A stretch of DNA of 39,181 bases from a virus (taxonomy: Duplodnaviria > Caudoviricetes). Position numbers and translations under genes: made by a program. The DNA lies in IMG/VR virus record IMGVR_UViG_3300012352_000293, positions 1 through 39,181 of that record; one strand, written 5' to 3'. Below, in pieces: positions 3,616 through 38,408 of this stretch (positions are counted from its first letter, which is position 1; every line of letters begins with the position of its first letter). The notes beneath the pieces were generated by a model. That model saw only the letters and a list, made by a program, of their open reading frames with translations. It did no database searches and was not told the DNA's origin.

Positions 3616-3964
3616 CTACTTCTGACACCTTGTTTTTAATCTTTGGGCGACCCCTTGCCACCAATGCTAGTTCGGCAAGAATCTTTATTGCTTTGTCCAT
3701 TGATTCGGTTCTTATCTTGTAATACGGGCTTGGCGCATCACCCGCGTTGTAATGGTAAATCGCGCCATTTTCCAAAAGTCCCATGTGCGCTTCAACCAAA
3801 GTGTCAACCACCAGAACCAACGAACCAACTAGCAGTTCATCAGATGCAGTTAACGCGCCTGTTGAATTCTCGACCTCATTTCTGATGGCTGTTTCAAATG
3901 CGTCTGCGTTCCATGTTTCAGGATTACGCAAAAAGCCAATAATTTGTTTTGGTGCTTTTTTCAT
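3593..3964 (-). CDS. terS: Terminase small subunit (P27-like)
   Basis: Directly upstream of and overlapping terL; 123 aa; PSPYYKIR...ILAELAL...R pattern resembles P27-family TerS. Confidence 0.8.
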   Translation of the reverse strand: MKKAPKQIIGFLRNPETWNADAFETAIRNEVENSTGALTASDELLVGSLVLVVDTLVEAHMGLLENGAIYHYNAGDAPSPYYKIRTESMDKAIKILAELALVARGRPKIKNKVSEVDELFATA

Positions 3965-4095
3965 TTTTTTATCTTAGTCGGTTTGGTGTATATTAGCAAT
4001 CTTATATCCCCCCCTAACTTTGTCTTTCTACGAAAAGACCCCCGCGCTTGCTTTTACGGCATCCCCAAATTTTTAAGTTTATTAATACAAAAGAC
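3965..4095. other. Probable packaging (cos) region between HNH and terS
   Basis: Non-coding gap with C runs and a GC-rich patch (gacccccgcgc), where HK97-like cos phages place cos. Positional inference only. Confidence 0.4.
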
Positions 4096-4536
4096 CTATT
4101 CTAACGGGCGCATATGGTATTCGCGAACCATGTATGCGTAATCGTGCTTTGTGTAGTCTTTAGCACCTTGTTGGGCATAGTGTCGATAGATGCCCTGCTT
4201 TTCTAGCCCTGTCTTTTGGCTATGGCAGTTATGGCAAAGTGATTGGAATATGTTGCGGCTAAACGCCTGACCGCCTATATGCTTCCACGCAAACAGATGG
4301 TCTATATGCTTTGCCGCGGCCACTATGCCCCTCGATAAACATCCTTGACACAGGGGTTGCTTGCTTATCTGTGCCGCCCTTATTGTTTTCCATAATGGTG
4401 TTTGGTACGCGCTATCTGTCTCGCGCCTAGCCATATTGTCCATGCCACCATGTTCTAAGCAGTAGGTGTTCAGTTTACTTCTAGGGTTCTTACATCCTAG
4501 TTCTGCACACTTACTGTTAGATGGTACTGATGGCAT
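4096..4536 (-). CDS. HNH endonuclease (terminase-associated, HK97 gp74-like)
   Basis: PLCQGC...HIDH...FQSLCHNCHSQKT motif; adjacent to terS. Confidence 0.9.
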   Translation of the reverse strand: MPSVPSNSKCAELGCKNPRSKLNTYCLEHGGMDNMARRETDSAYQTPLWKTIRAAQISKQPLCQGCLSRGIVAAAKHIDHLFAWKHIGGQAFSRNIFQSLCHNCHSQKTGLEKQGIYRHYAQQGAKDYTKHDYAYMVREYHMRPLE

Positions 4537-4928
4537 TAGGCTAAGAACCGCAGTTTGTACAGGGTACTGTTAATAAGGTTAGCGATTGTGTCCACCTCAT
4601 TTTGCAATTCGCTATCCTGTGGAAAGCCTGCCATTCTGCGTAATGTCTCTACCTCATCTTTCAGGTATGTAAGGTACGCGACAGGTTCAGTTGCGGGCAG
4701 TTCATAGTCTGCTTTGTAGTTGGTCAGCAGGCCGTACTTACCTTGGAATGCTTCAACAAATCCATCGACCAAATCGCCAACTTCATCGTAATAAGCGCCC
4801 AATGCCATGTGCTGTGAATAACTCAGGCTTTGGAAATGCAGAATGTGGGCGTTGGTTACGCTATGCAATAAGCATTGAACGAACTGCATCACGGGGTCTT
4901 TTTGGGTTGCTTCTGCGCGAAATTTCAT
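4536..4928 (-). CDS. Ferritin/Dps-like four-helix protein (DUF5856-like)
   Basis: HILHFQSLSYSQHMALGAYYDEVGDLVDGFVEAFQGKYG...YKLRFL pattern. Confidence 0.7.
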   Translation of the reverse strand: MKFRAEATQKDPVMQFVQCLLHSVTNAHILHFQSLSYSQHMALGAYYDEVGDLVDGFVEAFQGKYGLLTNYKADYELPATEPVAYLTYLKDEVETLRRMAGFPQDSELQNEVDTIANLINSTLYKLRFLA

Positions 4929-5254
4929 AATAAACCTTCAGGTATTGGTACATCATCAGGCCAAAGGCCATATGCCTGCAATTTTCTCACTGTTTCTTTA
5001 TGTGCGTAAAGCCATATTTTTTGGCGTTCTTCTTTGGTCAATCCTTTGCCTTGGTCAATTTCCATGTGGCATTCATGGCATAGGCTTGCAATTAGGTTGT
5101 CATCTGCCTTGATTCCACGGCCTTTGCCCCCTTGCCAATTGGTATGTGCGGCCACCACTGTGCCATCGTCTGCCCCGCAGTACTGACACGGGATTTCACG
5201 GGCATGGCGTAAAAGGGTTTGGCTTCTGATGTATTGATGTTTAGGAAATCTCAT
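4925..5254 (-). CDS. HNH-like nuclease (DUF968/DUF1364-type)
   Basis: CQYCG...AAH...GRGIKADD...LCHECH zinc/HNH motif. Confidence 0.75.
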   Translation of the reverse strand: MRFPKHQYIRSQTLLRHAREIPCQYCGADDGTVVAAHTNWQGGKGRGIKADDNLIASLCHECHMEIDQGKGLTKEERQKIWLYAHKETVRKLQAYGLWPDDVPIPEGLL

Positions 5255-5715
5255 TCAATTTCAACCACTAGGTTGCCGTTTGATTTAATGTAATCGCGGG
5301 TTTTCTTCACATACTTTTCAAAGTCTGCACGGATTACGCTTGCCTGTTGCAAATCAGCATATTCGATTAAATCCCTGATTGCCTGAATGCCAATGCCATC
5401 TAAGCCCATCCGCATGGTTTCCTGATAGCGCATAGCGGCTTTATGCAGGGCATCTTGGGCTTTCTCGCATACAGGCAGAACTTCGTCTTTGCCTATGCCT
5501 GCACGGGCCATTTGCTCAGACAAATTAAGCACATCAACTAGCGTGCGCCAATCCTGTACTGTTCCATTGCCCTTTGTGATGGCTTCCAGTGCCGCATATT
5601 CGGTTAGCCGCAGTTTGTCCAATGTCTGCCTTGGGGTAATGGCCGCGCCAATGATTACATGGGCAATCGGGTCGCTTAACAATCCCCAAATTTTGCGTTT
5701 AGTTCGTTTCCGCAT
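5251..5715 (-). CDS. Hypothetical phage protein
   Basis: 154-aa ORF with stop/start overlaps on both sides. Confidence 0.75.
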   Translation of the reverse strand: MRKRTKRKIWGLLSDPIAHVIIGAAITPRQTLDKLRLTEYAALEAITKGNGTVQDWRTLVDVLNLSEQMARAGIGKDEVLPVCEKAQDALHKAAMRYQETMRMGLDGIGIQAIRDLIEYADLQQASVIRADFEKYVKKTRDYIKSNGNLVVEIE

Positions 5716-5951
5716 TATTTTTTTAGGCTTCTTACATATTGGGCGAATGATGCCGCTGTGTCCCCAAAATTGGTGAACTTTTCCAGTTCTTTGGCTACTT
5801 CTTCCAACACCTGATTGCGTTGCGATGGGGAAACAAACAAATCGTAATGGTAGGGTTGACCTTCCATATCCCTTAGTATTTGCTTGCCAAGGTTGCTGTT
5901 TCTTTCAACCTCGTTAAATGCTTCGTCTTCCTCTTTTGTCCAGTCAGTCAT
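5715..5951 (-). CDS. Hypothetical phage protein
   Basis: 78 aa, translationally coupled; RNQVLEEVAK-type motif common in phage small proteins. Confidence 0.7.
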   Translation of the reverse strand: MTDWTKEEDEAFNEVERNSNLGKQILRDMEGQPYHYDLFVSPSQRNQVLEEVAKELEKFTNFGDTAASFAQYVRSLKK

Positions 5952-6349
5952 GCTTCCCCCTTAATGCCGTGTGCGGCTTCGATGGCTCTGGCAAGCGTTA
6001 TGACATTTACCTTGTCGTCCCAATCAACTTCGCATGAAGCCCAAGCGTCTTCAATTTCCTCATCCGTCAGCGGCTTGCGCTGTGGTGGGGTGGTGTAGAG
6101 GGGTACTCTGTCTTCACCAGAGGTTTTGTAAATCGTGCCACACCCGACAGAATCAAAGTGGTCACGCACCTCTTCAATCTTTACCCAACCCTCGACTGCG
6201 TTCCAGTATTCAAAAGGCTCATCCTTTGCTTCTAGTGCGGCTTTAATTCCGTTGATGGCTCGTTTTCTGGTGCATTTGCAATCGTCAGCGCAGATGTCTG
6301 ACATTTCCAACGCCTCCAATGCAAGGCGTAATGCTTCGTCTTTAGTCAT
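5948..6349 (-). CDS. Hypothetical phage protein (PLTDEEI family)
   Basis: SD GGAGG; MTKDEALRLALEAL...PLYT...PLTDEEI...ARAIEAAHGI motif. Confidence 0.8.
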   Translation of the reverse strand: MTKDEALRLALEALEMSDICADDCKCTRKRAINGIKAALEAKDEPFEYWNAVEGWVKIEEVRDHFDSVGCGTIYKTSGEDRVPLYTTPPQRKPLTDEEIEDAWASCEVDWDDKVNVITLARAIEAAHGIKGEA

Positions 6350-6537
6350 TTAGCACCTCCGTTGATTCGGTTTTGTTTAAGGTGTACGCCTGTGATTCTC
6401 TTTAACCAACAGGCTTGACAGTTCCACTTTACGCCTATGTCGATACCACCTTCGGGCGGCTTTTCTGTATTGCATTTGACGCATAGTTTGAACTTATGGC
6501 TTTCATGGGTTGACCCCATGTCTATCGATGGCATCAT
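6346..6537 (-). CDS. Small Zn-finger-like hypothetical protein
   Basis: CVKC...CQAC; coupled to neighbours. Confidence 0.65.
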   Translation of the reverse strand: MMPSIDMGSTHESHKFKLCVKCNTEKPPEGGIDIGVKWNCQACWLKRITGVHLKQNRINGGAK

Positions 6538-6689
6538 GTTTTTGGTTGCAGTGAAATTGGAATGTAAATACAGGCTTTGCTTTTACTGTTTTTCAGGTTG
6601 ACATAGTAGGCTTCGGCCTTGGTATTTAACCTTTTACAGTTTTGACATTTTGAATCTATTTCCCGCGGTTTACAACTTAGGTAATTCAT
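6534..6689 (-). CDS. Small Cys-rich hypothetical protein (51 aa, not in ORF track)
   Basis: [20 protein letters not shown]...KACIYIP; ATGA overlaps at both ends fill the gap exactly. Confidence 0.6.
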
Positions 6690-6931
6690 GGTTCTTGCAC
6701 CCTGTCTTTTTCTTCTTTAATGTGTTGCGCTAATTTATTGACACCAATCATTTCTAGGTCTGAAAACTGTTCTTCAGATAACAAGCCCATCACGCTAATG
6801 CCTTCAAATGTCACTTCTTCAATATTTTCAAAATATGGGCCATCTTCATCGCGTTCGTAAGACATTTTGCAAGTGACAGTTTCGCCCCCTGCGCCCGTTG
6901 TGGCATTGAATTCAAATTCGTAATCGTTCAT
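6686..6931 (-). CDS. Acidic hypothetical protein
   Basis: 81 aa, strongly Glu/Asp-rich; ATGA overlaps. Confidence 0.7.
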
Positions 6932-7023
6932 AAGGGTGCATCCTCGAAATTGTCGGGGTTAAAACGGGGAACGCGTGTTCCCTTATCTTTTGGGTTTGGA
7001 AAAGGTGGAAAAGGCCAGTTCAT
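6928..7023 (-). CDS. Pro-rich micro-protein (31 aa, not in ORF track)
   Basis: [31 protein letters not shown]; ATGA overlaps at both ends. Confidence 0.6.
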
Positions 7024-7226
7024 GCGGCCACCACTTGAAGTTCTGCCAATTGTTTGCTACTAACAATTTTCACAACGCCTTTTGCTTCTGCGTGTGTCCA
7101 TCTTTTAGCAATGACAAACTTAACGGCTTGGTTAAGGGTGCATGGAATTGTTTTGACAATCCAAGTATTGTTGAAGTCATCCAACATCACAACAAAGTAA
7201 TCTTTTTTCCAAGAATTTGATTTCAT
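7020..7226 (-). CDS. Hypothetical protein driven by cassette promoter
   Basis: ATG at 7226 (MKSNSWKK) follows the conserved leader ...ggtctttacgaaagcgcaaaATG. Confidence 0.7.
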   Translation of the reverse strand: MKSNSWKKDYFVVMLDDFNNTWIVKTIPCTLNQAVKFVIAKRWTHAEAKGVVKIVSSKQLAELQVVAA

Positions 7227-7297
7227 TTTGCGCTTTCGTAAAGACCAAGAACTATTGGCATGGGTCAATTATAAGCGGGCTTATATATCCTACGCAA
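7227..7297 (-). promoter_or_regulatory. Cassette promoter copy D: TTGCGT-N18-TATAAT with operator TATAAG-N4-CTTATA and 5' hairpin leader
   Basis: Palindrome at 7270-7285. Minus strand reads tataagcccgcttataattgacccatgccaatagttcttggtctttacgaaag, aligning with the three plus-strand copies. Confidence 0.8.
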
Positions 7298-7305
7298 GCG
7301 CATGG

Positions 7306-7638
7306 TTATTCTGTTGCTTTTATGCCATTTCGTTCATTGGCCGATTCTGTGCGCCACACTTCCGACCGCATTTGGGCCGCGGTTAGCATCCATCTTAGGC
7401 TTTCTTCTTGTTCGATGGCTACTGCCAAGCCGCGCAACAATTCTTGATATTCTGGGTGCGCGTAGGCTTCGCGTTCCTGTGCCGCGGCACTTTCGTAACC
7501 CATTTGCAATGCGTCTTTCATCAACAACGCTTTTTTGGTCTTTCGGAATTCTTCAAGGTATATGCGTTCGCTTTTAGCCTTGGCGTATTTAGGCGCATGG
7601 GTAATGATGAAATCTATGGCTTTGTAAGGCGGGGTCAT
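7306..7638 (-). CDS. Coiled-coil protein, possibly UvsY-like recombination mediator
   Basis: Helical AAQEREAYAHPEYQELL...WRT pattern; function tentative. Confidence 0.55.
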   Translation of the reverse strand: MTPPYKAIDFIITHAPKYAKAKSERIYLEEFRKTKKALLMKDALQMGYESAAAQEREAYAHPEYQELLRGLAVAIEQEESLRWMLTAAQMRSEVWRTESANERNGIKATE

Positions 7639-7901
7639 TTAATCATTCCAATCATTCTTAGGGCAGATTCGGGGCTGTCAATGCGGCACAAGGTACTTCC
7701 AGACCAATTGTCGAAAAAGTCGGCTTGTAGGGCTGTCAAACGCTTTTTAGAACCCGATTTGATTTCAACCAAGAATGTGTGGCCGTGATATCCAACCAGA
7801 AGGTCAACAGGCAGGCCAATAATCCAAACATATGCGCCTGCCGCCCGTAGTGCTGAAACGATTTGGTCTTGGTTGGCATCGACCCTTGCGGCATATCTCA
7901 T
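7635..7901 (-). CDS. VRR-NUC-like PD-(D/E)xK nuclease
   Basis: PVDLLVG...FLVEIK...LTALQADF motif. Confidence 0.8.
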   Translation of the reverse strand: MRYAARVDANQDQIVSALRAAGAYVWIIGLPVDLLVGYHGHTFLVEIKSGSKKRLTALQADFFDNWSGSTLCRIDSPESALRMIGMIK

Positions 7902-8104
7902 TTTTTCTTTTCTTTCATTGTGTTCATTCTTCGCTTCAAATCATCTGCGGCAGTTTGGCCGCGCTTGGCCGCAATGTCCTTAATGATTTTTGACCACCAT
8001 TCGATTGCTTCCCCGCGCCCTTCTTCCAATTGTTTTTTGCGATAACGCGCAATCCATTCACGCGCTTCGCAATCCTTAAAGTGTTCCATGTCCATCAATA
8101 TCAC
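7898..8104 (-). CDS. Hypothetical protein
   Basis: CEAREWI...KRG motif; exact start uncertain. Confidence 0.6.
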   Translation of the reverse strand: MILMDMEHFKDCEAREWIARYRKKQLEEGRGEAIEWWSKIIKDIAAKRGQTAADDLKRRMNTMKEKKK

Positions 8105-8198
8105 CCGTTAATTCCAAGGCTTTGCGAATAACCCATTGCGGGTAAATAACCCCATCCCGCACCCTATCCAAAATCCGCATTGCCATTTCGTATGTCAT
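8076..8198 (-). CDS. Small hypothetical protein (40 aa, not in ORF track)
   Basis: MTYEMAMRILDRVRDG...KALELTGD; ATGA overlap with the mom-like stop. Confidence 0.6.
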   Translation of the reverse strand: MTYEMAMRILDRVRDGVIYPQWVIRKALELTGDIDGHGTL

Positions 8199-8851
8199 AC
8201 AAACAAAAGTTGTTGGGTTTTAACTGTGCCGCCTGCATCGTATCGTTTGTTGTCACCTTTAGGGTAAGGCAACACAGGGTAGGTTAGTTCACGCAACAGA
8301 TTGGTTTTTTGCGTTTTACTGCCCACAATAAAAACATATCGATGTTTACGCGCCCGTTCAACAAAGTAAACATTATCTTCACCAAACTTTTCGATAACTT
8401 CTGCGTTGGTCAAACCATGTGCATAAGTTGTGTGGTGCAGATGTTCCATACCCTTCACCTTTGGGTCTTTAAACTTTGAACTAAGCCCTGTATAAATGAA
8501 ATTGCTTGCTTGGTAAACATACCCAACATGGCCTTGTTCTGAATCAGCATAAGAAACCACAATGGTTGGCTTTGGCAACATACGCATGGCCTTGGCGACA
8601 AACTCAGATGCAATGTTTTTTTCGTTCAAACAAACCAATCGGTTAAGTTCAATCACATTGTCTTGCCATTTCTTGCCGCATACGCCTTGCCGCAGGGTAG
8701 AACTAGCCGATGTTCCAAATGTCACTACGCCAACCAATTGGTTATCGATATAAGCCCCGAACGCATATGAAATTGATGGCATACGCTTGGCATAGTGTTT
8801 TTCAAGCAACCAAGGTTCTGTTTCAAAAGTGTTGATGGGCAGAACTTTCAT
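8195..8851 (-). CDS. mom: Mom-like GNAT-fold DNA adenine modification enzyme
   Basis: KHYAKRMP...VGVVTFG...IELNRL...VVSYADSEQGHVGYVYQASNFIYTG is the Mu Mom-family signature. Confidence 0.8.
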   Translation of the reverse strand: MKVLPINTFETEPWLLEKHYAKRMPSISYAFGAYIDNQLVGVVTFGTSASSTLRQGVCGKKWQDNVIELNRLVCLNEKNIASEFVAKAMRMLPKPTIVVSYADSEQGHVGYVYQASNFIYTGLSSKFKDPKVKGMEHLHHTTYAHGLTNAEVIEKFGEDNVYFVERARKHRYVFIVGSKTQKTNLLRELTYPVLPYPKGDNKRYDAGGTVKTQQLLFV

Positions 8852-9636
8852 GCTTTGGCCCTCAATGCGGCCATCTTTGCCAATTCTTCAAGCGTTGGTG
8901 GTCGGGTTATTTTTTCATCTGCCTTAATCTTTTCTAACGCAGGGTCAGGCAACTTTGAAGCAGGCACAGTTGTAAAAATAATATCTGCGGGATTTTTCTT
9001 TATGCCATCAGGCGGCAGTGCTTTTGCCAACCATTCCAAAGGTTGAATCGGTTTGGCTTTAATGCAATCGCGTAGTGTGTTTACCAAGGTTTCATCACCA
9101 TGCACCTTTCGCAAACTTCCAAGAAATGACCTTGCGTTTTTTTCAGCAGTTCCTGCATTGGTCAACAATGGAACGCCATAACCAAAAATAATTTCATCTG
9201 TGGAAAGTGGCGTTTTAACGCCTGTATCTTTAGATACAGAATTGGGTAATGTGTCTTGTGTAGTGTGTCTTGTGTTATGTGTAGCATTGCTATCGGATTG
9301 CGTTGGCAATGCGTTCGCATCCTTTTTGTTCCATCTTGCTTTTGCAGACGCACTAGCCTTTTCACTTTTTTCGCCAGTTTTGGCTATTTCTTTGTTTGCA
9401 CGATGATGAACCCAACCATCCGCAGTTCGTTCGAAATACTCTTGCAGTACGATTGAAATGCTATCGCTATGCGAACGCATACGAATCTGTCTTGCTATTT
9501 CTGTGACTTCAATTGGAATTGGTTGTTCGTGAAGATAGTACCAATCAAGCAAACGCCTGTATGCCAAATCTTCCATTTCGGAAAGGTGTGATGTGTGACT
9601 TTGATAGTCACCAATATTGAACTGGTAATAGTGCAT
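8848..9636 (-). CDS. Replication initiator, YdaU/DUF1376 family
   Basis: MHYYQFNIGDY...HLS..EDLAYRRLLDWYY N-terminus; internal iteron-like repeats; lies downstream of the cro-like gene. Confidence 0.85.
   Translation of the reverse strand: MHYYQFNIGDYQSHTSHLSEMEDLAYRRLLDWYYLHEQPIPIEVTEIARQIRMRSHSDSISIVLQEYFERTADGWVHHRANKEIAKTGEKSEKASASAKARWNKKDANALPTQSDSNATHNTRHTTQDTLPNSVSKDTGVKTPLSTDEIIFGYGVPLLTNAGTAEKNARSFLGSLRKVHGDETLVNTLRDCIKAKPIQPLEWLAKALPPDGIKKNPADIIFTTVPASKLPDPALEKIKADEKITRPPTLEELAKMAALRAKA
9250..9320. repeat. Putative replication origin: five tandem 7-mers TGTGTNN plus 11-bp iteron-like repeats
   Basis: 9250-9284 reads TGTGTCT TGTGTAG TGTGTCT TGTGTTA TGTGTAG. From 9320 the minus strand reads ATGCGAACGCA TTGCCAACGCA ATCCGATAGCA ATGCTAC. 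Confidence 0.7.
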
Positions 9637-9768
9637 TTTTCCCACTTTAAAAAAACCACTTAAAAGAAACTGCGGCAGGGAAAAAGTGGGAATCCTTTTC
9701 AGTTGGGTAATTAGTCCAACCTAGCCGTGTTTCAAAAAATTGTATCAAAGAATCATAAATGTGTGCAA
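9637..9768 (-). promoter_or_regulatory. Promoter (TTGCAC-N18-TACAAT, TG extension) and structured leader of the replication gene
   Basis: Nested stems GAAAC.CGGC.AGG / CCTGCCG..GTTTC and GTTGG/CCAAC; TTCCCACTTT is complementary to AAAGTGGGAA just before the ATG. Confidence 0.55.
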
Positions 9769-9942
9769 ATCTTTGCGTTCTTCATGTGTCATTGAAAAAT
9801 AGTAACTCTGTGCAAAATCTTTGACCTTGTGATAACAAAGCAAGTGATACAGGGAATCTTGCATTGATTGGTTCTCTACCGCAAACGCAAGGTGTTCCAT
9901 CATCATTGCTTTGTAGTGCAAATAGTTTTTTATATTTTTCAT
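9745..9942 (-). CDS. Hypothetical protein
   Basis: ATG at 9942 overlaps the cro-like TGA (ATGA); MKNIKNYLHYKAMMMEHLAF... Confidence 0.65.
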   Translation of the reverse strand: MKNIKNYLHYKAMMMEHLAFAVENQSMQDSLYHLLCYHKVKDFAQSYYFSMTHEERKDLHTFMIL

Positions 9943-10091
9943 TTGAACCATTCGGGTTTCAACAACTTTAACTGCCACAACCTAGCCGCGGGAATTTCTT
10001 TCCATTGGCTGATGGCCGATTGGGAAATGCCAAGCAATTCCGCCAATTCGGTCTGATTGTTTACCTTTGTTAACAATTCTGATTTAGTCAT
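9939..10091 (-). CDS. cro: Cro-like HTH repressor (50 aa, not in ORF track)
   Basis: MTKSELLTKVNNQTELAELLGISQSAISQWKEIPAARLWQLKLLKPEWFK, a classic Cro/YdaS-type HTH; divergent from the early arm. Confidence 0.9.
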   Translation of the reverse strand: MTKSELLTKVNNQTELAELLGISQSAISQWKEIPAARLWQLKLLKPEWFK

Positions 10092-10126
10092 ACCTTATTA
10101 TAAGCCAACTAATAGATGTGTTGCAT
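10092..10126 (-). promoter_or_regulatory. Leaderless promoter of the cro-like gene with overlapping operator
   Basis: Minus strand TATAAT-aaggt-ATG; operator variant TATAAG-CCAA-CTAATA at 10099-10114. Confidence 0.7.
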
Positions 10127-10236
10127 TAGGGAAACTACTTATAAAAATATTTTAAAAAGTGCTTGTATTGGTTATAAGTTGGCTTATAATTCATCCATGC
10201 CCTAAACAAACGGGGTCTTTTAAAAGGAACTAAAAA
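10127..10236 (+). promoter_or_regulatory. Cassette promoter copy A
   Basis: TAGGGAAACTACTTA box; TTGTAT(10163)-N16-TATAAT(10185); operator TATAAG-TTGG-CTTATA at 10173-10188; leader ccatgccct...ggggtctttt; RBS AAGGA. Confidence 0.85.
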
Positions 10237-10434
10237 ATGATTACTCTCACATTCACCGCAAAATTTGATGACACCACAGGCAACATTCGCCCTTGGGAAA
10301 TTTATGTTAAGCAAGACAATGGCCCTTACAAAATGTGCGCTAGTGCCAAAACATTAGAAGGCGCAGAAAAGTCAATCAAACAGCGCATGAAAGACAGAGA
10401 AAAATATTTCATCTGCATTTACGAAAAAAACTAA
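10237..10434 (+). CDS. Small early hypothetical protein
   Basis: 65 aa, with dedicated promoter and RBS. Confidence 0.8.
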   Translation: MITLTFTAKFDDTTGNIRPWEIYVKQDNGPYKMCASAKTLEGAEKSIKQRMKDREKYFICIYEKN

Positions 10435-10438
10435 AAAC

Positions 10439-10452
10439 GGGGCGCAAGCCCC
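10439..10452. terminator. GC hairpin GGGGC-GCAA-GCCCC at cassette end (T-tract on minus strand only)
   Basis: Perfect 5-bp stem with GNRA loop, preceded by an A run. Confidence 0.5.
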
Positions 10453-10454
10453 AT

Positions 10455-10563
10455 TAGGGAAAATACTTAGAAAATAATTTAAAAAAAGTGTTGACCTAGT
10501 TATAAGTTGCCTTATAATTCACCCATGCCCTGAACTTCTCGGGGTCTTAAAGAAAGTAACCAA
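10455..10563 (+). promoter_or_regulatory. Cassette promoter copy B
   Basis: TAGGGAAAATACTTA; TTGACC(10491)-N16-TATAAT(10513); operator TATAAG-TTGC-CTTATA at 10501-10516; hairpin ccctga-acttc-tcgggg; RBS GAAAG. Confidence 0.9.
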
Positions 10564-10806
10564 ATGACAAACTTAACTCTCAAACAAGCAGTAGAAACAA
10601 AGCGTAACGAACGCGCCAACAGTGAAGCCCGCTTTGCCAAGGCAACTGCCGCCCAAGCCGCCAAGATTGCCAAGTTCACCCCACGCACAGATTTGCACCC
10701 CGCAGTTGGCGTGTTAATGAGTGCCAAGGGTGTTCGTTACTACGCGTTTGTTGGTGGTGTGTATCGTGAAGGTACACCAGAACACTTGGCCGCTTTGTTG
10801 GCTTAA
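10564..10806 (+). CDS. Small early hypothetical protein
   Basis: 80 aa, with dedicated promoter and RBS. Confidence 0.8.
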   Translation: MTNLTLKQAVETKRNERANSEARFAKATAAQAAKIAKFTPRTDLHPAVGVLMSAKGVRYYAFVGGVYREGTPEHLAALLA

Positions 10807-10819
10807 TTAGGGGGCTAGG

Positions 10820-11065
10820 ATGTACGACAAAACAACCCATGCCCGCGTAGTTTCCAACAACTACTTTTGGATTGGCATAACAGAAGAACAGTTGTTGGCA
10901 AATATGAATCGCATTTGGGACAAGCCTAATAACTATGCGTTGTCACACATCAAAGCAGGCATTGCACAACTTGAAAGCCGCGGCATTCTGACAAAAGAAG
11001 AAGCGCAGAATTGCCTTAAAGAAACTTTAAAAATGCGTAAAAGCAACACTAGGGAAAATACCTAG
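10820..11065 (+). CDS. Small early hypothetical protein
   Basis: 81 aa; AGGGGG RBS. Confidence 0.75.
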   Translation: MYDKTTHARVVSNNYFWIGITEEQLLANMNRIWDKPNNYALSHIKAGIAQLESRGILTKEEAQNCLKETLKMRKSNTRENT

Positions 11066-11147
11066 AAAATAATTGTTGACCTTGATATAAGTTGGCTTAT
11101 AATTACACCATGCCCTAACTTCTAGGGTCTTTTAGAAAGTAAACAAA
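11050..11147 (+). promoter_or_regulatory. Cassette promoter copy C
   Basis: TAGGGAAAATACCTA; TTGACC(11076)-N16-TATAAT(11098); operator TATAAG-TTGG-CTTATA at 11086-11101; hairpin cccta-acttc-taggg; RBS GAAAG. Confidence 0.9.
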
Positions 11148-11369
11148 ATGTCCCAAATTTTCAAAGCCGATTGTTATTTTCAGCAAGAACAATACAACCC
11201 ACGCATTCGCGCAACTGTTCCACCCGCTTGGGTTATTGAGTTTGATTGCGCTTTGCCCAATACCAATGTGCCGCCTGTGTTCTTTGGCATTACGCGCAAA
11301 GAAGCAATCCAAAACGCAATTGATTGCTTGAAGTCCCGCGGTTTTACAGGTCGTTTAATTCTTAACTAA
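11148..11369 (+). CDS. Small early hypothetical protein
   Basis: 73 aa, with dedicated promoter and RBS. Confidence 0.8.
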   Translation: MSQIFKADCYFQQEQYNPRIRATVPPAWVIEFDCALPNTNVPPVFFGITRKEAIQNAIDCLKSRGFTGRLILN

Positions 11370-11376
11370 ATCAAAC

Positions 11377-11392
11377 GGGGGCTTAGTCCCCC
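11377..11392. terminator. GC hairpin GGGGG-cttagt-CCCCC at cassette end
   Basis: Preceded by aaac, as at 10439; no plus-strand T-tract. Confidence 0.4.
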
Positions 11393-11406
11393 ACATAGGA
11401 CAAAAC

Positions 11407-11547
11407 ATGAAACTTTACAGCATCAATTTTTTCTGCGATTACAAACAACACTCTGAACAAGTTTGGGCTGTTGGTCGCTATGAATTGGAAAAAGAAATTT
11501 TGGCTAAGTATCCAAAGGCTACTGGCATTGACATTTGGGTTATCTAA
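11407..11547 (+). CDS. Small hypothetical protein (46 aa, not in ORF track)
   Basis: AGGA RBS; MKLYSINFFCDYKQHSEQVWAVGRYELEKEILAKYPKATGIDIWVI. Confidence 0.7.
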   Translation: MKLYSINFFCDYKQHSEQVWAVGRYELEKEILAKYPKATGIDIWVI

Positions 11548-11556
11548 GGACAAAAC

Positions 11557-11649
11557 ATGAAACAAAAAATCATCACCACAATAATCGAATGCACTTTGGC
11601 AATCATCATCTTTGGTGGTTGGGGTGTTCTCTTGGCATGGCGGGGGTAA
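11557..11649 (+). CDS. Single-TM micro-protein (30 aa, not in ORF track)
   Basis: AAGGA RBS; MKQKIITTIIECTLAIIIFGGWGVLLAWRG. Confidence 0.7.
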   Translation: MKQKIITTIIECTLAIIIFGGWGVLLAWRG

Positions 11650-11651
11650 AC

Positions 11652-11873
11652 ATGAAAAACGAACCAGCATTTCCGTTTCAAATTAATTTTCCAAATGAGG
11701 CGGGGAAAGGAATTATGTACCATGAGGGGATGACCTTGCGTGACTACTTTGCGGCTAAAGCAATGCAGGGTTTGATTACTGACCAAAGTATTTTTTTAGA
11801 TAACAATGAATTTGAAATTGCACATGATGCTTATGTTTTAGCAGATGCAATGCTAAAAGAAAGGACAAAATAA
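11652..11873 (+). CDS. Conserved phage hypothetical protein (PAFP...GMTLRDYFAAKAMQ family)
   Basis: The signature motif starts just after ATG 11652; the upstream extension in the ORF track is spurious. Confidence 0.8.
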   Translation: MKNEPAFPFQINFPNEAGKGIMYHEGMTLRDYFAAKAMQGLITDQSIFLDNNEFEIAHDAYVLADAMLKERTK

Positions 11874-11874
11874 A

Positions 11875-12066
11875 ATGAACTTTATTGAACGCTTCCAATC
11901 CCTGTGGCAAATGCCATCACCAAAAGAACTTGCGGCCAAAGAACTTGAAGAAGCCAAGCGCAGATTCTTAGATGCCCAAAGCGGCATGGAATACGCAAAA
12001 CGAATGTCTGATTACCATTCAGACCGAATTAAACGATTGACCAACTATTTAGAAAGTTCAGAATGA
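11875..12066 (+). CDS. Coiled-coil hypothetical protein
   Basis: 63 aa; AAGGA RBS; coupled to erf. Confidence 0.75.
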   Translation: MNFIERFQSLWQMPSPKELAAKELEEAKRRFLDAQSGMEYAKRMSDYHSDRIKRLTNYLESSE

Positions 12067-12611
12067 AGCAAATATCAACTGCGTTAGTCAAAGCACAAAA
12101 GGCGTTTGCGCCTGCTTTAAAGAACGCCTATAACCCGCATTTTAAAAACAAGTACGCAGACCTTGCCGCGTGTGTTGAAGCCGTTGTAGATGCCCTGAAT
12201 GCAAACGGCATTGCCTTGGTACAAAAGACCCGCGAATGCGTTGGTGGCGTGATGGTGGAAACAATCTTTATTCACGAATCAGGCGAAACATTAGATTGCG
12301 GTGTTTTGCATTTCCCTGTAACCAAGAATGACCCGCCTGCGTATATGTCTGCCTTGACCTATGCCCGTAGGGGTTCGCTGATGGCCGCCTGTGGCATTGC
12401 ACCAGAAGATGATGATGGACACATGGCAACCATTCCAAGCAAAGGTGTGGATGAAAGCGCCCTTGCAGACCATTTAGCCGCAATTGAAGCATCAACAGAC
12501 CAAGATGGTTTGAAAGCCGCCTATAAAGCCGCCTATGCCGCTTGTAATGGCAACGCTGATTGGCAGAAGAAAGTTATTGCAGTAAAAGATAAAGTGAAGG
12601 CAAAACTATGA
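12063..12611 (+). CDS. erf: ERF-family single-strand annealing recombinase
   Basis: NPHFKNKYADL...HESGE...SALTYARR...GIAPEDDDG. Confidence 0.92.
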   Translation: MKQISTALVKAQKAFAPALKNAYNPHFKNKYADLAACVEAVVDALNANGIALVQKTRECVGGVMVETIFIHESGETLDCGVLHFPVTKNDPPAYMSALTYARRGSLMAACGIAPEDDDGHMATIPSKGVDESALADHLAAIEASTDQDGLKAAYKAAYAACNGNADWQKKVIAVKDKVKAKL

Positions 12612-12856
12612 AATACGCGACAGAAGCATACGATTTGTTGGTTGACCAGTTAAAGAAAGAAAAGCAAGAACTGTACGACAGGCTAAATGAAGAATGTGGC
12701 ACAAACTCAACAATCATTTTGGGTTTGCTTGAATACATTGCAAGCAATCTTAATTTGAAATCTGCATTTGAAGTTGCCAAAAAATATGATGCTCAATTTC
12801 CAGATGAACAATTGGTTCGTTATGTCAAAGAAGATTTAGGGTTTAGATATGATTGA
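12608..12856 (+). CDS. Hypothetical protein inserted between recombinase and exonuclease
   Basis: 82 aa; overlaps both neighbours. Confidence 0.7.
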   Translation: MKYATEAYDLLVDQLKKEKQELYDRLNEECGTNSTIILGLLEYIASNLNLKSAFEVAKKYDAQFPDEQLVRYVKEDLGFRYD

Positions 12857-13472
12857 ACAGGGAACACCAGAATGGTTTGCCGCCCGCTTGGGAAATGTTA
12901 CGGCATCCCGCGTTGCTGATGTGATTGCCAAGACCAAAAGCGGTTATTCAGCATCACGCGACAATTACATGGCGCAACTTATTTGCGAACGAATGACAGG
13001 CACAGTTGCAGAATCGTTTACCAGTTCAGCAATGCAATGGGGAACTGAAACCGAACCTTTTGCCCGTGCCGCTTATGAATCTGCAACAGATGTATTGGTT
13101 GACCAAGTAGGGTATGTGCCACATCCAATCATTGAACGCGCAGGGGCATCGCCTGATGGCTTGGTTGGGGCGTATGGGTTACTGGAAATTAAATGCCCAA
13201 ACACGGCTACGCATATTGACACATTGTTAAACAACCAAGTGCCAACAAAATACTTTACGCAAATGCAATGGCAGATGGCTTGCACAAAGCGTGAATGGTG
13301 TGATTTCGTATCGTTTGACCCACGATTACCAGAAGGGTTGCAACTGTTTGTTAAGCGTGTTGAATACGATGCGGAATATGCGGGGATGCTTGCATCTGAA
13401 GTTTTTGATTTTTTACAAGAACTTGATACAAAGATTTTTAAACTGAACGAAAGATTGAACCATGTCAACTAA
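12849..13472 (+). CDS. YqaJ / lambda-exonuclease family protein
   Basis: QGTPEWFAARLG.VTAS, GASPDGL, LEIKCP, QMQWQM, FVSFDPR. Confidence 0.95.
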   Translation: MIEQGTPEWFAARLGNVTASRVADVIAKTKSGYSASRDNYMAQLICERMTGTVAESFTSSAMQWGTETEPFARAAYESATDVLVDQVGYVPHPIIERAGASPDGLVGAYGLLEIKCPNTATHIDTLLNNQVPTKYFTQMQWQMACTKREWCDFVSFDPRLPEGLQLFVKRVEYDAEYAGMLASEVFDFLQELDTKIFKLNERLNHVN

Positions 13473-29430: not shown

Positions 29431-31422
29431 TTATGTTCTCCCGAAATTGGTTGGCATATTCTTGCCTGCATATTGATTTGCCGCCCAAACAGCGTTTGAA
29501 CTTCCTAGCAATCTATCTTCAAAGGATTTTGTATCAATTGCGTTAATGTAGTTGTTGGTCACATTAGTTGTGCCGCCCATGCCCGATAGCGCATGATTTG
29601 GAATAATTGTTCCTGCTGTTCTTGGAACAAAAATTTCTGGGCCGCGTTCACCAACAATGCTTGGTTGACCAACAGAAGGGTTGCCGCCATCCGCATATCC
29701 GGGCATTCCCAACACCGATGCCCCTGCCATTTGATTGCCACCACCAAACAACGAACCCAACAACCTGAAAGCCATTGCCTTCATCTGCATTGCAAGTATG
29801 TCCTGAATGATGCTACGCGCCAAATCTTTAAAACTCAATTTGCCAGTGCGAACAAAGTTATCGATTGCCGAACCCATGTTGCCCATCAAAGAATCAAAAG
29901 CCTTTTCGCCCATTTCCAAATCGGTTGGTAAATTACGCAAGAATTCACCCATGCGTTTTGTTACGCCTTCTTCATAAGTGCCTTCACGCAAGCCTTTTGT
30001 AAGGCGGTGTTTTTCTCTTGCAATTGCCAATGACTTTTCTGCCAAAGCATTTTCACGCGTTTCTGCTTCAAGTCTTGCTGTTGCAGTTAAGTCCCTACGG
30101 CTTCCAATTTCTTCAAGATTTCTTTCTAGTTGTTGGCGAATCAATAATTGTTCGCGTTCTAATGCGTAATCTTCTTGACGCATACCGCTAGATTTCATTT
30201 CTAATTGCATCAATTCTTTTTCGCTATCAAGCGCAATGCCCATTAACCTTTGGCGTTCTGCAACCGCGGCATTGCCTTTGTCATACATTGCAAAGAATTC
30301 TGCACGGGCTTTTGCATCTTCTTCAGCAGATTTTTGTGCGTTTGCCGCACCTTGTGCATAAATCTGCATTTGCCTTTTGCGTTCTTTTTCCGCTTCTTTA
30401 GATTCAGAAACAACGCGGCCACCTTTACCACCAGAAGGTTTTTTGTTGTCTGTTCTGCGTTCATCAACACTACTTCGGCCAGTGCTTACGCCCATCACTT
30501 GATCTTGATAAAAATCTAAGTTCTGCCGTGATGTTTTAACTTTGGCGTTGTATTCTTCATTGGCCTTAATTGCGGCATCTTTACCTTTTGTTATTAAAGT
30601 GACCGCGTTGTTGTAAGTATGTCCAATCTCATCAAAGATTGTTTTAAAGAACCAACCAATTTCAGAACCCAAAACAGTCACTGTTTGAAATACAGTTCTA
30701 AAGATGCCACTAAGTGAAACACCTTGGTCGCCCAATGTTTTCATATAGTCAACAGTGGCTTTAAGAATTGGCCCAAGTTCTGTACCAAGAATCACCATTA
30801 CATCGCGTGATGTTTGTGCAAACAAATCGTATGTATCTGCCGCGGCTTTAATTGCTTTTTCTTGTTCTTCAATTAAAGGATTGACTTGCGACATTTTGTC
30901 AGCGAAGCCTTGCATATCAACACCTTTGGCGGCCTTGGAAAAGATTTCCATTGCCTTGGCGTTACGCGTTACGGGGTCTTCAATTTTCCCTAGATTTGCA
31001 ACAACTTTGTTTAGCAATTCTTCTTGGGAAAGCGTGCCTAAATCTTTTAAACTAACGCCTAAATTTTGGGCAGTCTTTTGTGCTTTATCTGAACCACTAG
31101 CGGCTTCGTCAATAAACTTTGCAAACGCTGAAAGCATCTTTCCCGCGTTGTCTGCTTTGCCACCTGAGTTTGCCAACGCATCAGAAAGTTTAAGAACAGT
31201 ACCAATTGCAACTTCATTGGCTTCTGCAACATCTGCAAGTTCGTCTGCGTATTTAAGTGCCGCGGCACTAGCGGCAACTAAAGCGGTTGCGCCAATCTTG
31301 CCAAATTTTTCTGCGGTTTGGCTGAATTGTTCAAGTTTCTTTCCCGCGGCTTCAATGCCTTTATTAAACTCCGCAGTATCTAAACCTAATGCAACCCCAA
31401 GTCGGGCAATCATATTAGCCAT
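29431..31422 (-). CDS. Tape measure protein
   Basis: 663-aa helical Ala/Lys-rich; TGKLSFKDLARSII and YADGG...VGERGPEIF lambda-like C-terminus. Confidence 0.93.
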   Translation of the reverse strand: MANMIARLGVALGLDTAEFNKGIEAAGKKLEQFSQTAEKFGKIGATALVAASAAALKYADELADVAEANEVAIGTVLKLSDALANSGGKADNAGKMLSAFAKFIDEAASGSDKAQKTAQNLGVSLKDLGTLSQEELLNKVVANLGKIEDPVTRNAKAMEIFSKAAKGVDMQGFADKMSQVNPLIEEQEKAIKAAADTYDLFAQTSRDVMVILGTELGPILKATVDYMKTLGDQGVSLSGIFRTVFQTVTVLGSEIGWFFKTIFDEIGHTYNNAVTLITKGKDAAIKANEEYNAKVKTSRQNLDFYQDQVMGVSTGRSSVDERRTDNKKPSGGKGGRVVSESKEAEKERKRQMQIYAQGAANAQKSAEEDAKARAEFFAMYDKGNAAVAERQRLMGIALDSEKELMQLEMKSSGMRQEDYALEREQLLIRQQLERNLEEIGSRRDLTATARLEAETRENALAEKSLAIAREKHRLTKGLREGTYEEGVTKRMGEFLRNLPTDLEMGEKAFDSLMGNMGSAIDNFVRTGKLSFKDLARSIIQDILAMQMKAMAFRLLGSLFGGGNQMAGASVLGMPGYADGGNPSVGQPSIVGERGPEIFVPRTAGTIIPNHALSGMGGTTNVTNNYINAIDTKSFEDRLLGSSNAVWAANQYAGKNMPTNFGRT

Positions 31423-31786
31423 CTTTTACCCCAAACTTTGTTTTATTGAATCCCTGCGCCTGCGAGATAAAACCAATCAGGCTGTCGTTTACTGCCGCCT
31501 TTTCCTGTTCTTTAGTCAATGGCGGATATATGTAATCATACGCACTACCTAAAATGTTGGCTAGTTTATAAAGCGGGGAATTTGGTGGCCGCATATAGTT
31601 GAACACCCCATTTGTAAGGTTTGCTATCTGCGTTAAAAGCCCGTAGTTTCCAATCAAACCATCTGCATACATCGTTTGGATGTTTGCCATAGTTATATCG
31701 TCAATTTCGGCTATTGAATCAGGGGTATGCCCGTTAAAAACCATTGCCGCAACGCATTGGGTTTTTAACGAGCCAATCAGTTTCCC
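31415..31786 (-). CDS. Tail assembly chaperone gpGT extension (-1 frameshift product)
   Basis: The -1 frame after G GGA AAC is open (GKLIGSLKTQCVAAMVFNGH...) into 31415..31744. Confidence 0.8.
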   Translation of the reverse strand, partial: GKLIGSLKTQCVAAMVFNGHTPDSIAEIDDITMANIQTMYADGLIGNYGLLTQIANLTNGVFNYMRPPNSPLYKLANILGSAYDYIYPPLTKEQEKAAVNDSLIGFISQAQGFNKTKFGVKDG

Positions 31787-32259
31787 CGCGCTTCCTTATA
31801 GGTCGGGCTAATGACTTCGCCAATCTTTTCAACAATCTGCATCTGAACAGAAATTGGGAATTCTTCTTCAATGTCTTTGTAGGTCAAATCTTCAAAACTT
31901 GCACCTTCCAATTCTGGAACAAGTAGTTTAAAAAACTCAGTAATTCGGGCTTCAGTGATTGCTTTGTTTTTGGCCGCTTCACGCATAGAACGCCCATCAA
32001 CCAGAATGTCGTTTTCAGTAAACTTAAATTCTTCTGTTTGGTTGTCTTTAAATTGTTGCAATGGCGCAGTAATTAAATGATAAATCCTATCGATTGTTAC
32101 TTCATCAGGGTTTGCAACTTTCTGATAAATCGCTTCAGATTCTGCAACCAATGGAATGCGAACTTTGAAGATGTGACCACCTAATTCAAATGTTCGCGTT
32201 AGAAGATTCTTTTTGTTGCTTTGGTACTTGTCGCCAAATGCGCTTGAAAATTTTGTCAT
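31777..32259 (-). CDS. Tail assembly chaperone gpG
   Basis: Upstream of tape measure; ends ...ARGN at the slippery heptamer. Confidence 0.85.
   Translation of the reverse strand: MTKFSSAFGDKYQSNKKNLLTRTFELGGHIFKVRIPLVAESEAIYQKVANPDEVTIDRIYHLITAPLQQFKDNQTEEFKFTENDILVDGRSMREAAKNKAITEARITEFFKLLVPELEGASFEDLTYKDIEEEFPISVQMQIVEKIGEVISPTYKEARGN
31780..31786 (-). promoter_or_regulatory. -1 programmed frameshift site GGGAAAC
   Basis: XXXYYYZ heptamer in the correct phase immediately before the gpG stop. Confidence 0.85.
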
Positions 32260-35065: not shown

Positions 35066-36082
35066 TTAGGCGGCAGACATACGAACGCCTGCAAATGGGT
35101 CGCGTACAGAACTTACAACGCGTTTCTCTGCGTACAGAGTCACAAAACCAACTTGCGTTTGTTCAAACATTTGCACAGACATTTGTTCAGTGTCGCCAAT
35201 TGTTAAAAAGCGATTCCAGTTTGCCAAGTAAATGGGGAACGCATCTGACAAGTATGGGTTAGGAATAACAGGCCAACCGAACACGCGACCAACTGCCGCC
35301 CCGTCAGCATCGCCAATTTCCAAGAACAATGGCAAACCTTGGCTGTCTTTCAATTGACGCAAAGTCTGAATCATTGTTGGGGTCATGTGCCATGCAGTTG
35401 TAGGCAACGCCCAATACTGTGCAGGCAACGCATTGGCCATGTTGGTCATCTTGTTGTAAGTGACCGCAACACCACCATTGCTAACAGTAGCGATGCTGTG
35501 AATACCATTTGTAATAGCCGTACCGCTAGTACCATAAGCACTAGCAGAAGCACTAGCGTAACTATCCAAGCCACGCAAACCATTAGTAGCGCCTGTTGAA
35601 GTAGTTGTACTACCCGCTTGGTCACTATTGAGCACCATTGATTGGCCTTCCAATTGAGCGAATTCAAGCGCCAAATCTTCAACCAATGTTGCATCCAAAT
35701 TATTAACATCGCTTAACACCGCAGTTCTGATTGGCAATTGTGCAACCAACACGCGCACAGGCAGTTGCCAAATGCTTGTATTCACATTAGGTGAACCGCT
35801 GTTAGGCGTAAATGTGTACCCCCAAGGGTTGGTACTGTTTGCGGCATTACCCGTTTTGGCAACGAATTGAGCATCAGAACCATTCACTGCAATTTGGCGT
35901 GAGCCTTGACGCAATGGGTTGGCTTGACGCAGTGCGGCAAACGCATCATCAAAAACAACATTACCACCAACACCCGAACCCGAACCAGTAATACCGCTTG
36001 CTTCACGCAAATCGATATTTACTTTGCCGCCTTCGGTGATGGCTTGTTTGATTCCGTTCAAGATTTTTTCGGTGATAGTCAT
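35066..36082 (-). CDS. Second (minor) HK97-fold capsid protein paralogue
   Basis: Aligns with the main MCP (FAALRQANPLR, PIRTAVLSD, ALPAQYW, LRQLKDSQG, YAEKRV...RDP) but has only a ~28-aa leader. Confidence 0.88.
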   Translation of the reverse strand: MTITEKILNGIKQAITEGGKVNIDLREASGITGSGSGVGGNVVFDDAFAALRQANPLRQGSRQIAVNGSDAQFVAKTGNAANSTNPWGYTFTPNSGSPNVNTSIWQLPVRVLVAQLPIRTAVLSDVNNLDATLVEDLALEFAQLEGQSMVLNSDQAGSTTTSTGATNGLRGLDSYASASASAYGTSGTAITNGIHSIATVSNGGVAVTYNKMTNMANALPAQYWALPTTAWHMTPTMIQTLRQLKDSQGLPLFLEIGDADGAAVGRVFGWPVIPNPYLSDAFPIYLANWNRFLTIGDTEQMSVQMFEQTQVGFVTLYAEKRVVSSVRDPFAGVRMSAA

Positions 36083-36096
36083 AAGAATTCCTGTTT

Positions 36097-36126
36097 AAAA
36101 AAAGCGGGGGATTTTCGCCCCCCGCT
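36097..36126 (-). terminator. Intrinsic terminator between the two capsid genes
   Basis: AGCGGGGG-loop-CCCCCGCT 8-bp stem running into a T7 tract on the minus strand. Confidence 0.85.
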
Positions 36127-36142
36127 AATGGCAACGCAACTA

Positions 36143-38265: not shown

Positions 38266-38398
38266 AGATTACCTCATCAACTTTAGTTCGGTCGATGTCA
38301 TATATTGTTTTAGGTGGTCGCCCTCGTTTCGGGGGCGTTTCTGTATTTGGCTTATATGTTGCCAACGATGCTATCACAACTCGAAAAATATGTGACAC
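38189..38398 (-). CDS. Small AT-hook-containing protein, second allele
   Basis: PKRGRPPK; orthologous to 294..506. Confidence 0.65.
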   Translation of the reverse strand: MSHIFRVVIASLATYKPNTETPPKRGRPPKTIYDIDRTKVDEVIYDQKPDDGLRSQTSFGKAGRKHRKN

Positions 38399-38408
38399 TT
38401 TATTTTTA

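Follow-up and report, generated by a model that had tools for sequence, protein, structure and literature searches.

How does a phage come to hold several similar promoter regions in a row, each before a different small gene, and what governs the genes behind them? We examined this question in a 39,181-nucleotide stretch of viral DNA (hereafter the window). An earlier sequence-only reading had proposed gene cassettes shuffled between repeats, expressed on entry, silenced by a Cro-like protein, and rich in anti-defense genes. Comparison with relatives makes it probable that copies of a promoter-like unit precede accessory genes, that related phages gain, lose, or replace these genes by recombination in the unit, and that a Cro protein is the predicted shut-off.

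The window is a single phage genome of ~37.9 kb with overlapping ends. Because these ends (1-1286 versus 37896-39181, with portal-gene sequence in both) are only 87.5% alike, the record may mix strains, and two strains in a single assembly are likely. Annotation of 63 ORFs with PHROGs indicates a long-tailed head–tail module, lysis genes, and a replication gene, with ERF and exonuclease genes on the strand opposite to the replication gene; the cassette array is located at the point where the two early arms diverge. Neither a tyrosine integrase nor an S24 repressor (cI) was found in the window or in four near-complete relatives (5/5 genomes), and no serine recombinase appears among the 63 window ORFs as annotated with PHROGs, which is not a dedicated family search. 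The nearest cultured relative found, Methylophilaceae phage P19250A (KX815270; terminase 60%, endolysin 60%), has a gene layout like that of the window and a single promoter at the equivalent place, and no repeats were seen by eye in its positions 30200-32200. A search for the host by an ERF scan of GTDB returned four loci, none informative.

Several other features of the genome deserve mention. A gene for Mom-like DNA modification (8195-8851, minus strand; PHROGs) adjoins the replication gene, at a position that varies among relatives. Two tandem genes at 35066-37486 (minus strand) both match the major head protein family phrog_10, and a gene at 4536-4928 (minus strand), sitting between two HNH genes, matches phrog_858, "starvation-inducible transcriptional regulator." A three-stem RNA element is predicted at 9655-9735 (minus strand), between a 77-aa ORF and the replication gene, with a fold z of −0.8 and related stretches in three other loci (L037, L042, and L112). 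A search of Rfam over 3800-12100 gave nothing at gathering level, its sole weak match, to int-alpA (E 0.37), being this element outside the array.

Three direct repeats of ~100-110 bp lie exactly where the sequence-only reading had placed them (Table 1), and they contain the parts it described: a TAGGG box, an A/T tract, a −35-like hexamer, TATAAT after a spacing of 16 nt, the palindrome TATAAG-N4-CTTATA overlapping the −10 in each of the three, a leader, and a purine-rich RBS. An ungapped comparison over 84 nt puts units 1 and 2 at 81% identity, and a 51-nt core is 78–84% alike across all three units, with an A/T tract that is 10 nt shorter in unit 3. An nhmmer profile of the three recovered a worn fourth unit (E 9e-7), which is conserved in relatives and whose operator follows the Cro type. 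The 16-nt spacing and the end hairpins without U-tracts leave room for doubt about how strong and how well insulated the units are. Against GenBank phages, a 151-base query of the repeat gave no match, and the only matches to a 49-base query were generic A/T-promoter ones. Across the genome, the palindrome pattern is found at six places (3991, 7270, 10099, 10173, 10501, and 11086) versus 0.02 expected from composition, a comparison in which the pattern was itself drawn from these sites. At the first of these, the region before terS (3964-4075, minus strand), the Cro-type operator is preceded by a G run, and there is no clear −35.

Table 1. Positions of the control units, operators, hairpins, and genes in the window
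Feature	Position	Strand	Remarks
Predicted operator before terS	3991-4006	.	Cro-type palindrome
68-aa gene behind unit 4	7020-7226	-	no family
Unit 4, worn	7301-7225	-	operator 7270-7285, −10, leader hairpin, RBS; without TAGGG box
P22-type Cro, 50 aa	9939-10091	-	Pfam P22_Cro 36.9 bits, cut-off 30.2
cro promoter	−10 at 10102-10097	-	overlapped by operator 10099-10114; from sequence
Unit 1	10127-10236	+	TAGGG box 10127-10141, A/T tract, −35 10163, operator 10173-10188, −10 10185
Unit 1 leader hairpin	10199-10216	+	RBS after
c1, 65 aa	10237-10434	+	rare family; 3 clusters including itself
G/C hairpin closing cassette 1	10439-10452	+	GCAA loop; no U-tract after
Unit 2	10455-10563	+	operator 10501-10516, −10 10513, leader hairpin 10527-10545
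c2a (F3), 80 aa	10564-10806	+	118 clusters; second phage lineage too
c2b (F11), 81 aa	10820-11065	+	after c2a in 6/6 regions of the window's lineage holding c2b
Unit 3, short form	11050-11147	+	box one helical turn closer; overlaps end of c2b
c3a (F0), 73 aa	11148-11369	+	predicted small beta-beta-beta-alpha-beta fold
G/C hairpin closing array	11377-11392	+	from sequence
c3b (F18), 46 aa	11407-11547	+	variable; without own promoter
Hydrophobic 30-aa ORF	11557-11649	+	conserved; right border of variable zone
ERF-like annealing protein	12063-12611	+	PHROGs
Exonuclease	12849-13472	+	PHROGs

The Cro protein encoded next to the array matches P22 Cro in the PDB (1rzs, E 3e-4). The cro start codon lies 5 nt past its −10, and a Cro-like ORF with a −10-like hexamer 5–7 nt before its ATG was found in 76/77 regions, the search window having been set at 4–9 nt and two of the picks being upstream ATGs. 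So short a distance makes a leaderless cro mRNA likely. For N15 Cro, a 16-bp site and a recognition code of Gln H1/A+2, Ala H3/A+5, and Gln H6/G+6 are reported (PMC6649833), and the window's Cro helix and half-site agree with this code at all three positions. Among 28 distinct helix/half-site pairs from 52 loci, the left half-site, which is free of the −10, combines Gln with A+2 (16/17), Arg with T+2 (11/11), Ala with A+5 (27/27), and Gln at H6 with G+6 (23/24); L047 was skipped in this count, and both exceptions are L049, which is mis-registered and by eye fits the code one base over. A 51-column tree, with bootstrap unsettled, forces two independent Gln–Arg changes at H1, so that the independent evidence of covariation amounts to two events only.

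The distant promoter of unit 4, 3 kb off, changes its operator in step with Cro. Exact sites number 3–7 in each of the 8/8 genomes with this Cro and are found in none of six with other P22-type Cros, and the reversed-site control is absent from 20/20 genomes. On the strength of the code, the helix/half-site covariation, and the distant promoter, all of them sequence comparisons, it is very likely that the Cro-like gene product reads the palindrome, as had been suggested. The predicted operator before terS occupies the same place in 3/3 relatives whose loci reach terS, one of them degenerate, and from this site Cro may act on late transcription as well. In 22 regions with an unrelated Cro, the array promoter lacks the palindrome, indicating that arrays of such cargo can exist without this form of control; a single promoter was found per array there, as might be expected if additional promoters persist only where Cro can silence them. 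Four of six genomes with the unrelated Cro family keep one such operator, at the distant promoter. Class-0 loci (L006, L009, L011, and others) carry a different Cro family and a dyad, GTTG-N8-CAAC, over the cro −10 and start; by eye, Pro at H1 goes with T+2 in these proteins, as the code predicts.

Of the G/C hairpins that were said to end two units, both are present and close units 1 and 3; they lack a sense U-tract, and they score as terminators on the minus strand only. The polyG-loop-polyC hairpin stands before unit 2 and after cassette 3 and is absent before units 1 and 3. Relatives supply 53 distinct end hairpins, whose plus-strand loops include 13 GCAA, 6 GAAA, 2 TACG, and 1 TTCG, and in 44 of the 53, the 8 nt that follow contain no more than two T; they resemble hairpins of a sense-strand RNA, but with no U-tract behind them. 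With this Cro type, such hairpins adjoin later units, lying upstream of 16/28 later units and 0/17 first units. The unit leader also folds as a hairpin, which in all 104 distinct leaders starts 7–9 nt past the −10, and the distance from hairpin to ATG is 16–20 nt in 100/107. Loops of several types replace one another, and pairing is kept at inner positions whose bases vary (pair 4 in 80/83, pair 5 in 76/83), while single leaders are modestly stable against shuffles (z −0.9 to −2.2). Loop type is independent of Cro type, the same loops occurring with all Cro types, the unrelated one included. We read the leader hairpin as a 5′ stabilizer of the mRNA. A boxA/boxB interpretation of the leader was dropped, as the TCTT core varies.

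The TAGGG box is a second dyad, present at 70/96 promoters with a P22-type Cro versus 0/22 with the unrelated Cro. In 68 of these 70, its center lies 30, 40–42, or 50–51 nt before the −10; before the cro −10, the distance is mostly 29–33 nt. This helical phasing is what points to an activator and suggests that the box is read by one from the host. In 401 Pseudomonadota genomes, a match to the box was found in 84, with no excess over a reversed control. It is unlikely to be a Cro site, because it does not change with residue H1, and is likewise unlikely to be a site for the 77-aa ORF after cro, which is present in loci without the box.

Behind the units lie small unrelated ORFs, as originally described (65, 80 + 81, and 73 aa), together with a further one (c3b) absent from the earlier list. 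Third-position bias in the four window cargo genes with relatives in the set, weakest in c2b, supports their being real genes. The window's five cargo genes have no match in PHROGs, Pfam, PADLOC, or NCBIfam, and c2a and c3a have none in GenBank phages. The c1 family has two relatives at 83–91% and none in the IMG/VR scan, and the junctions around c1 are seen in no relative; c1 is almost without cover in the contigs of four public runs, an absence that carries no evidential weight. The 30-aa ORF bordering the zone has a tblastn match in 104/165 sequences searched.

The fold of c3a is predicted confidently (pLDDT 90) as a small alpha/beta unit. Its similarity to TTHA1013 (Z 5.2, rmsd 2.3, 56 aligned) and to the HicB N-domain (Z 4.2, rmsd 2.9, 52 aligned, level with dsRBDs) is below the tool's guide value of 8, and no HicB Pfam match was found in 26 members. 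For c2a (pLDDT 86), the best Z is 4.0, to coiled coils. Foldseek gave no match at E ≤ 0.001 for either protein and no convincing solved structure, and a profile search of two cargo proteins against the PDB recognized no acr. A 2480-aa protein matching the c3a profile (P0177) was discarded as an Ig-repeat protein. In another (P0162), a c3a-like domain is, by eye, fused to cargo family F41; judging from this example, cargo can fuse into two-domain proteins.

We collected loci by an ERF scan (80), a replication-protein scan (80), and a pattern scan (4). Of these, 93 span the zone from cro or rep to the conserved 30-aa ORF, and 77 are distinct, the window included. The 77 regions contain 177 ORFs in 43 families; before order and families were counted, F13, F14, F24, F25, and F30 were dropped as probable alternative-frame calls, leaving 38. 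Across these regions content differs and the unit stays, the pattern expected if cargo varies while repeats persist. Gene content between the repeats is far from fixed: among the 18 regions that share the window's Cro type, promoters number one to five per region, and there are 17 different arrays and 17 families. Ten of the 38 families cross Cro classes, and two of the 38 have a Pfam match above cut-off. Relatives hold LPD29 (8 regions) and DUF932/TIGR03299 (2 regions) in these slots. These two raise the chance that cargo includes anti-defense genes, as had been predicted; on the other side, the window's own five match no family. No known acr or other anti-defense gene was recognized among the 38 families with Pfam, PHROGs, and NCBIfam, libraries that cover such genes poorly.

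Where do the exchanges occur? In 10 of the 15 BLAST-listed regions of this Cro type, blocks similar to the window stop at 10235 ± 11, the c1 start codon, and similarity restarts at 10426-10455 or 11075-11125. Across 45 units from 17 loci, first units left out, identity in the upstream part is 0.69 with the same and 0.36 with a different previous gene; in the leaders of these 45 units it is 0.87 with the same and 0.65 with a different next gene; and in the promoter core it is 0.80–0.87 throughout, whatever the neighbors. Because the upstream part tracks the previous gene and the leader tracks the next, the promoter core is where we place the exchange. Loci whose Cro is unrelated have c3a behind the leader alone, which makes the leader a further joint. 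In four public runs, contigs start and stop at units, and their loose ends continue into other cargo. A swap by homologous recombination inside the unit is therefore the likely event, as far as such patterns can indicate it.

Gene order is nearly constant. Only 1/17 lead-gene pairs is seen in both orders versus 10.9 expected, and 0/5000 shuffles are as low, although kinship inflates this contrast; 1/45 family pairs seen at least twice occurs in both orders, the loci being related by descent and the pair counts not independent. The reversed pair, F3/F4, is in one genome. The proposed exchange between repeats is thus borne out by exchange points inside the unit, but with order near-fixed it is not shuffling as worded; the comparison describes slot-wise gain, loss, and replacement more than free shuffling. 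The anatomy of the unit, its variable number and content, the exchange points, the near-fixed order, and an operator that tracks the Cro helix are all evident from the regions themselves.

The same cargo is used elsewhere. Relatives of c2a were found in 31 loci, 23 of them without cro or ERF within 2.5 kb. These led to a second lineage (L190 / G425:C1:38000-43300 and L174-L199) with cassette arrays of its own; one complete record, of 55.4 kb, differs in terminase and portal type and matches 7/59 window proteins. No Cro-like protein was matched in that complete genome, and its regulator was not found. Early genes of this lineage stand behind repeats with the same TAGGG box and A/T tract, combined with another spacer and a CACTG-type leader hairpin, and their order varies, with several reversed pairs. 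Seven families are common to both lineages (F2, F3, F4, F11, F12, F20, and F28), about 34–91% alike; one F12 gene has 91% protein identity across lineages, each lineage keeps its own leader, and similarity stops at the stop codon. A 25-nt box-plus-tract pattern was found in 117 IMG/VR stretches representing 94 distinct contexts: 37 with the window-type leader, 38 with the second-lineage leader, 13 with another, and 6 without a recognized −10, in a scan whose choice of −10 favored 41 or 51 nt. That the upstream box is common to both suggests a transcription factor of which several phage lineages make use.

Other explanations were considered for these observations. That the recorded array is a mis-assembly of several strains joined at repeats would account for the 87.5% similarity of the ends, for public-run contigs breaking at repeats, and for c1 junctions without counterpart in relatives. 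We regard it as very improbable, given that c2a-c2b-c3a stand in the same order in L035 and L053, that c3a to the c3b start recurs in L123, and that many separate records contain arrays of two to five units; no more than the exact combination could be artificial. It is also quite improbable that cassettes travel as circles, or by means of a site-specific recombinase dedicated to them, and can enter again at any unit, as in an integron. PeSL mini-circles were shown in RB49/phi1 (PMC2839356), and the F3/F4 reversal and the reversed pairs of the second lineage are what such movement would produce, whereas the scarcity of lead-gene pairs in both orders (again with kinship in play), the lack of a tyrosine integrase in 5/5 genomes and of a serine recombinase in the PHROGs annotation, and exchange points in more than one part of the unit all weigh against it. 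A better fit appears to be homologous exchange in which the genomes are aligned and only occasionally out of register.

The palindrome could instead be read by a host protein, or be a by-product of repeat homogenization, with Cro merely its own autorepressor. The −10 overlaps its right half and in part dictates the sequence there, and its survival in 4/6 genomes with another Cro would be explained; we nevertheless consider this improbable, as the left half tracks Cro H1 according to the published code, including at 3 kb, and two of the sites (3991 and 10099) are not part of the repeats. More serious is the possibility, which we still rate as doubtful, of a counter-defense island run like acr-aca, in which most cargo would inhibit defenses and Cro would be an Aca, perhaps binding the RNA of the leader hairpin in the manner of Aca1 and Aca2. 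This is compatible with our preferred explanation and is the stronger claim. The acr-aca1 promoter has a similar anatomy, with an operator at the promoter, an upstream second motif, and a ~20-nt hairpin after the start that ends ~20 nt before the ATG (10.64898/2026.07.27.740549), comparable to the 16–20 nt seen here; LPD29 has also been reported in aca4 operons, where its role is a prediction, and LPD domains have been proposed as helpers of early invasion (PMC5512222). Against such an island stand the absence of a recognized acr or anti-defense gene among the 38 families, in poorly covering libraries, and the place of cro, which is divergent and separate from the cargo operon and which stands at the head of the replication genes as well. 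Leader binding of the Aca kind is further disfavored by leader loops that are the same with all Cro types.

Recombining promoter units under predicted Cro shut-off suggest the following course of infection. On phage entry, host sigma-70 RNA polymerase would fire the units, probably with the aid of a host factor bound to the phased TAGGG box, and the 5′ hairpin would protect each mRNA. Cro, whose leaderless promoter would be weak, would accumulate, bind the palindrome over each −10, and repress the units, its own gene, and two distant promoters, which would make it a timer. At the units, co-infecting relatives would be recombined by ERF and exonuclease or by host RecA. The cargo genes most likely encode host-interaction proteins of mixed kinds, some of them counter-defense. 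This arrangement shows how a lytic phage could take in foreign early genes yet switch them off. The unit offers a search tag, and the 38 cargo families from 77 regions a test set for counter-defense and host-takeover screens; with the natural Gln/Arg Cro series and its matching operators, the Cro recognition code can be tested directly and extended. As a tentative extension, unrelated aquatic phage lineages might share an early-gene plug-in standard, with a phased box for a host activator and a common cargo pool re-headed with the recipient's unit, and with a cI-less Cro serving here as a genome-wide, Aca-like timer. If this were true, the unit would be a tag to harvest dozens of new counter-defense proteins.

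In the open-access text searched, we found no description of such a system, which does not establish its absence from print. The closest precedent, experimentally tested, is the PeSL of T4-type phages, a ~100-bp repeat with an A/T tract, a sigma-70 promoter, polyG-loop-polyC, an SD, and a start codon (PMC2839356, PMC4122927). The analogy drawn by the sequence-only reading holds: the window likewise has a repeated ~100-bp intergenic unit with an A/T tract, sigma-70 boxes, an SD, and a start codon, a polyG-loop-polyC stem-loop stands just before one of its units, and in both, the gain, loss, and replacement of orphan genes map to the units (PMC2839356, PMC4122927). By analogy, the element would work like a PeSL yet fall outside the described PeSL sets. 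Unlike PeSLs of T4-type myoviruses, it sits in a 38-kb siphophage of lambdoid layout with a tape measure, with one to five units in one slot zone, and each window unit bears a Cro-type operator, an upstream box in helical phase, and, separately, a 5′ leader hairpin; PMC2839356 nowhere uses the word "repress". The window's array also has a near-fixed order, and its likeness to PeSLs is one of sequence.

The regulatory side resembles the P22/N15 Cro switch, with a P22_Cro protein at the divergence point, a 16-bp operator obeying the H1/H3/H6 code, and an autoregulatory site over its own −10 (PMC6649833). It departs from that switch in that no cI or integrase was found, single operators rather than OR1-3 lie over six promoters, Cro is predicted to be leaderless, and Arg H1 with G+1/T+2 is not among the pairings published in the accessible part of that work (PMC6649833). 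The proposed Aca analogy stands insofar as an HTH protein goes with an inverted repeat in the cargo promoter and fails insofar as cro is on the opposite strand and not co-encoded. With acr-aca loci, the window shares a small HTH repressor, an inverted repeat at an early promoter, a second motif, a 5′ hairpin, and, in relatives, LPD29, and the leader hairpin of acr-aca1 is reported to be bound by Aca1 (10.64898/2026.07.27.740549); unlike in those loci, several tandem promoters act as exchange points, and no known acr was recognized among the cargo. Unlike an integron array, the locus has no dedicated tyrosine integrase that we could find. Here, one small element brings together the recombination of promoter cassettes and predicted repression of the Cro/Aca kind, both of them known ideas.
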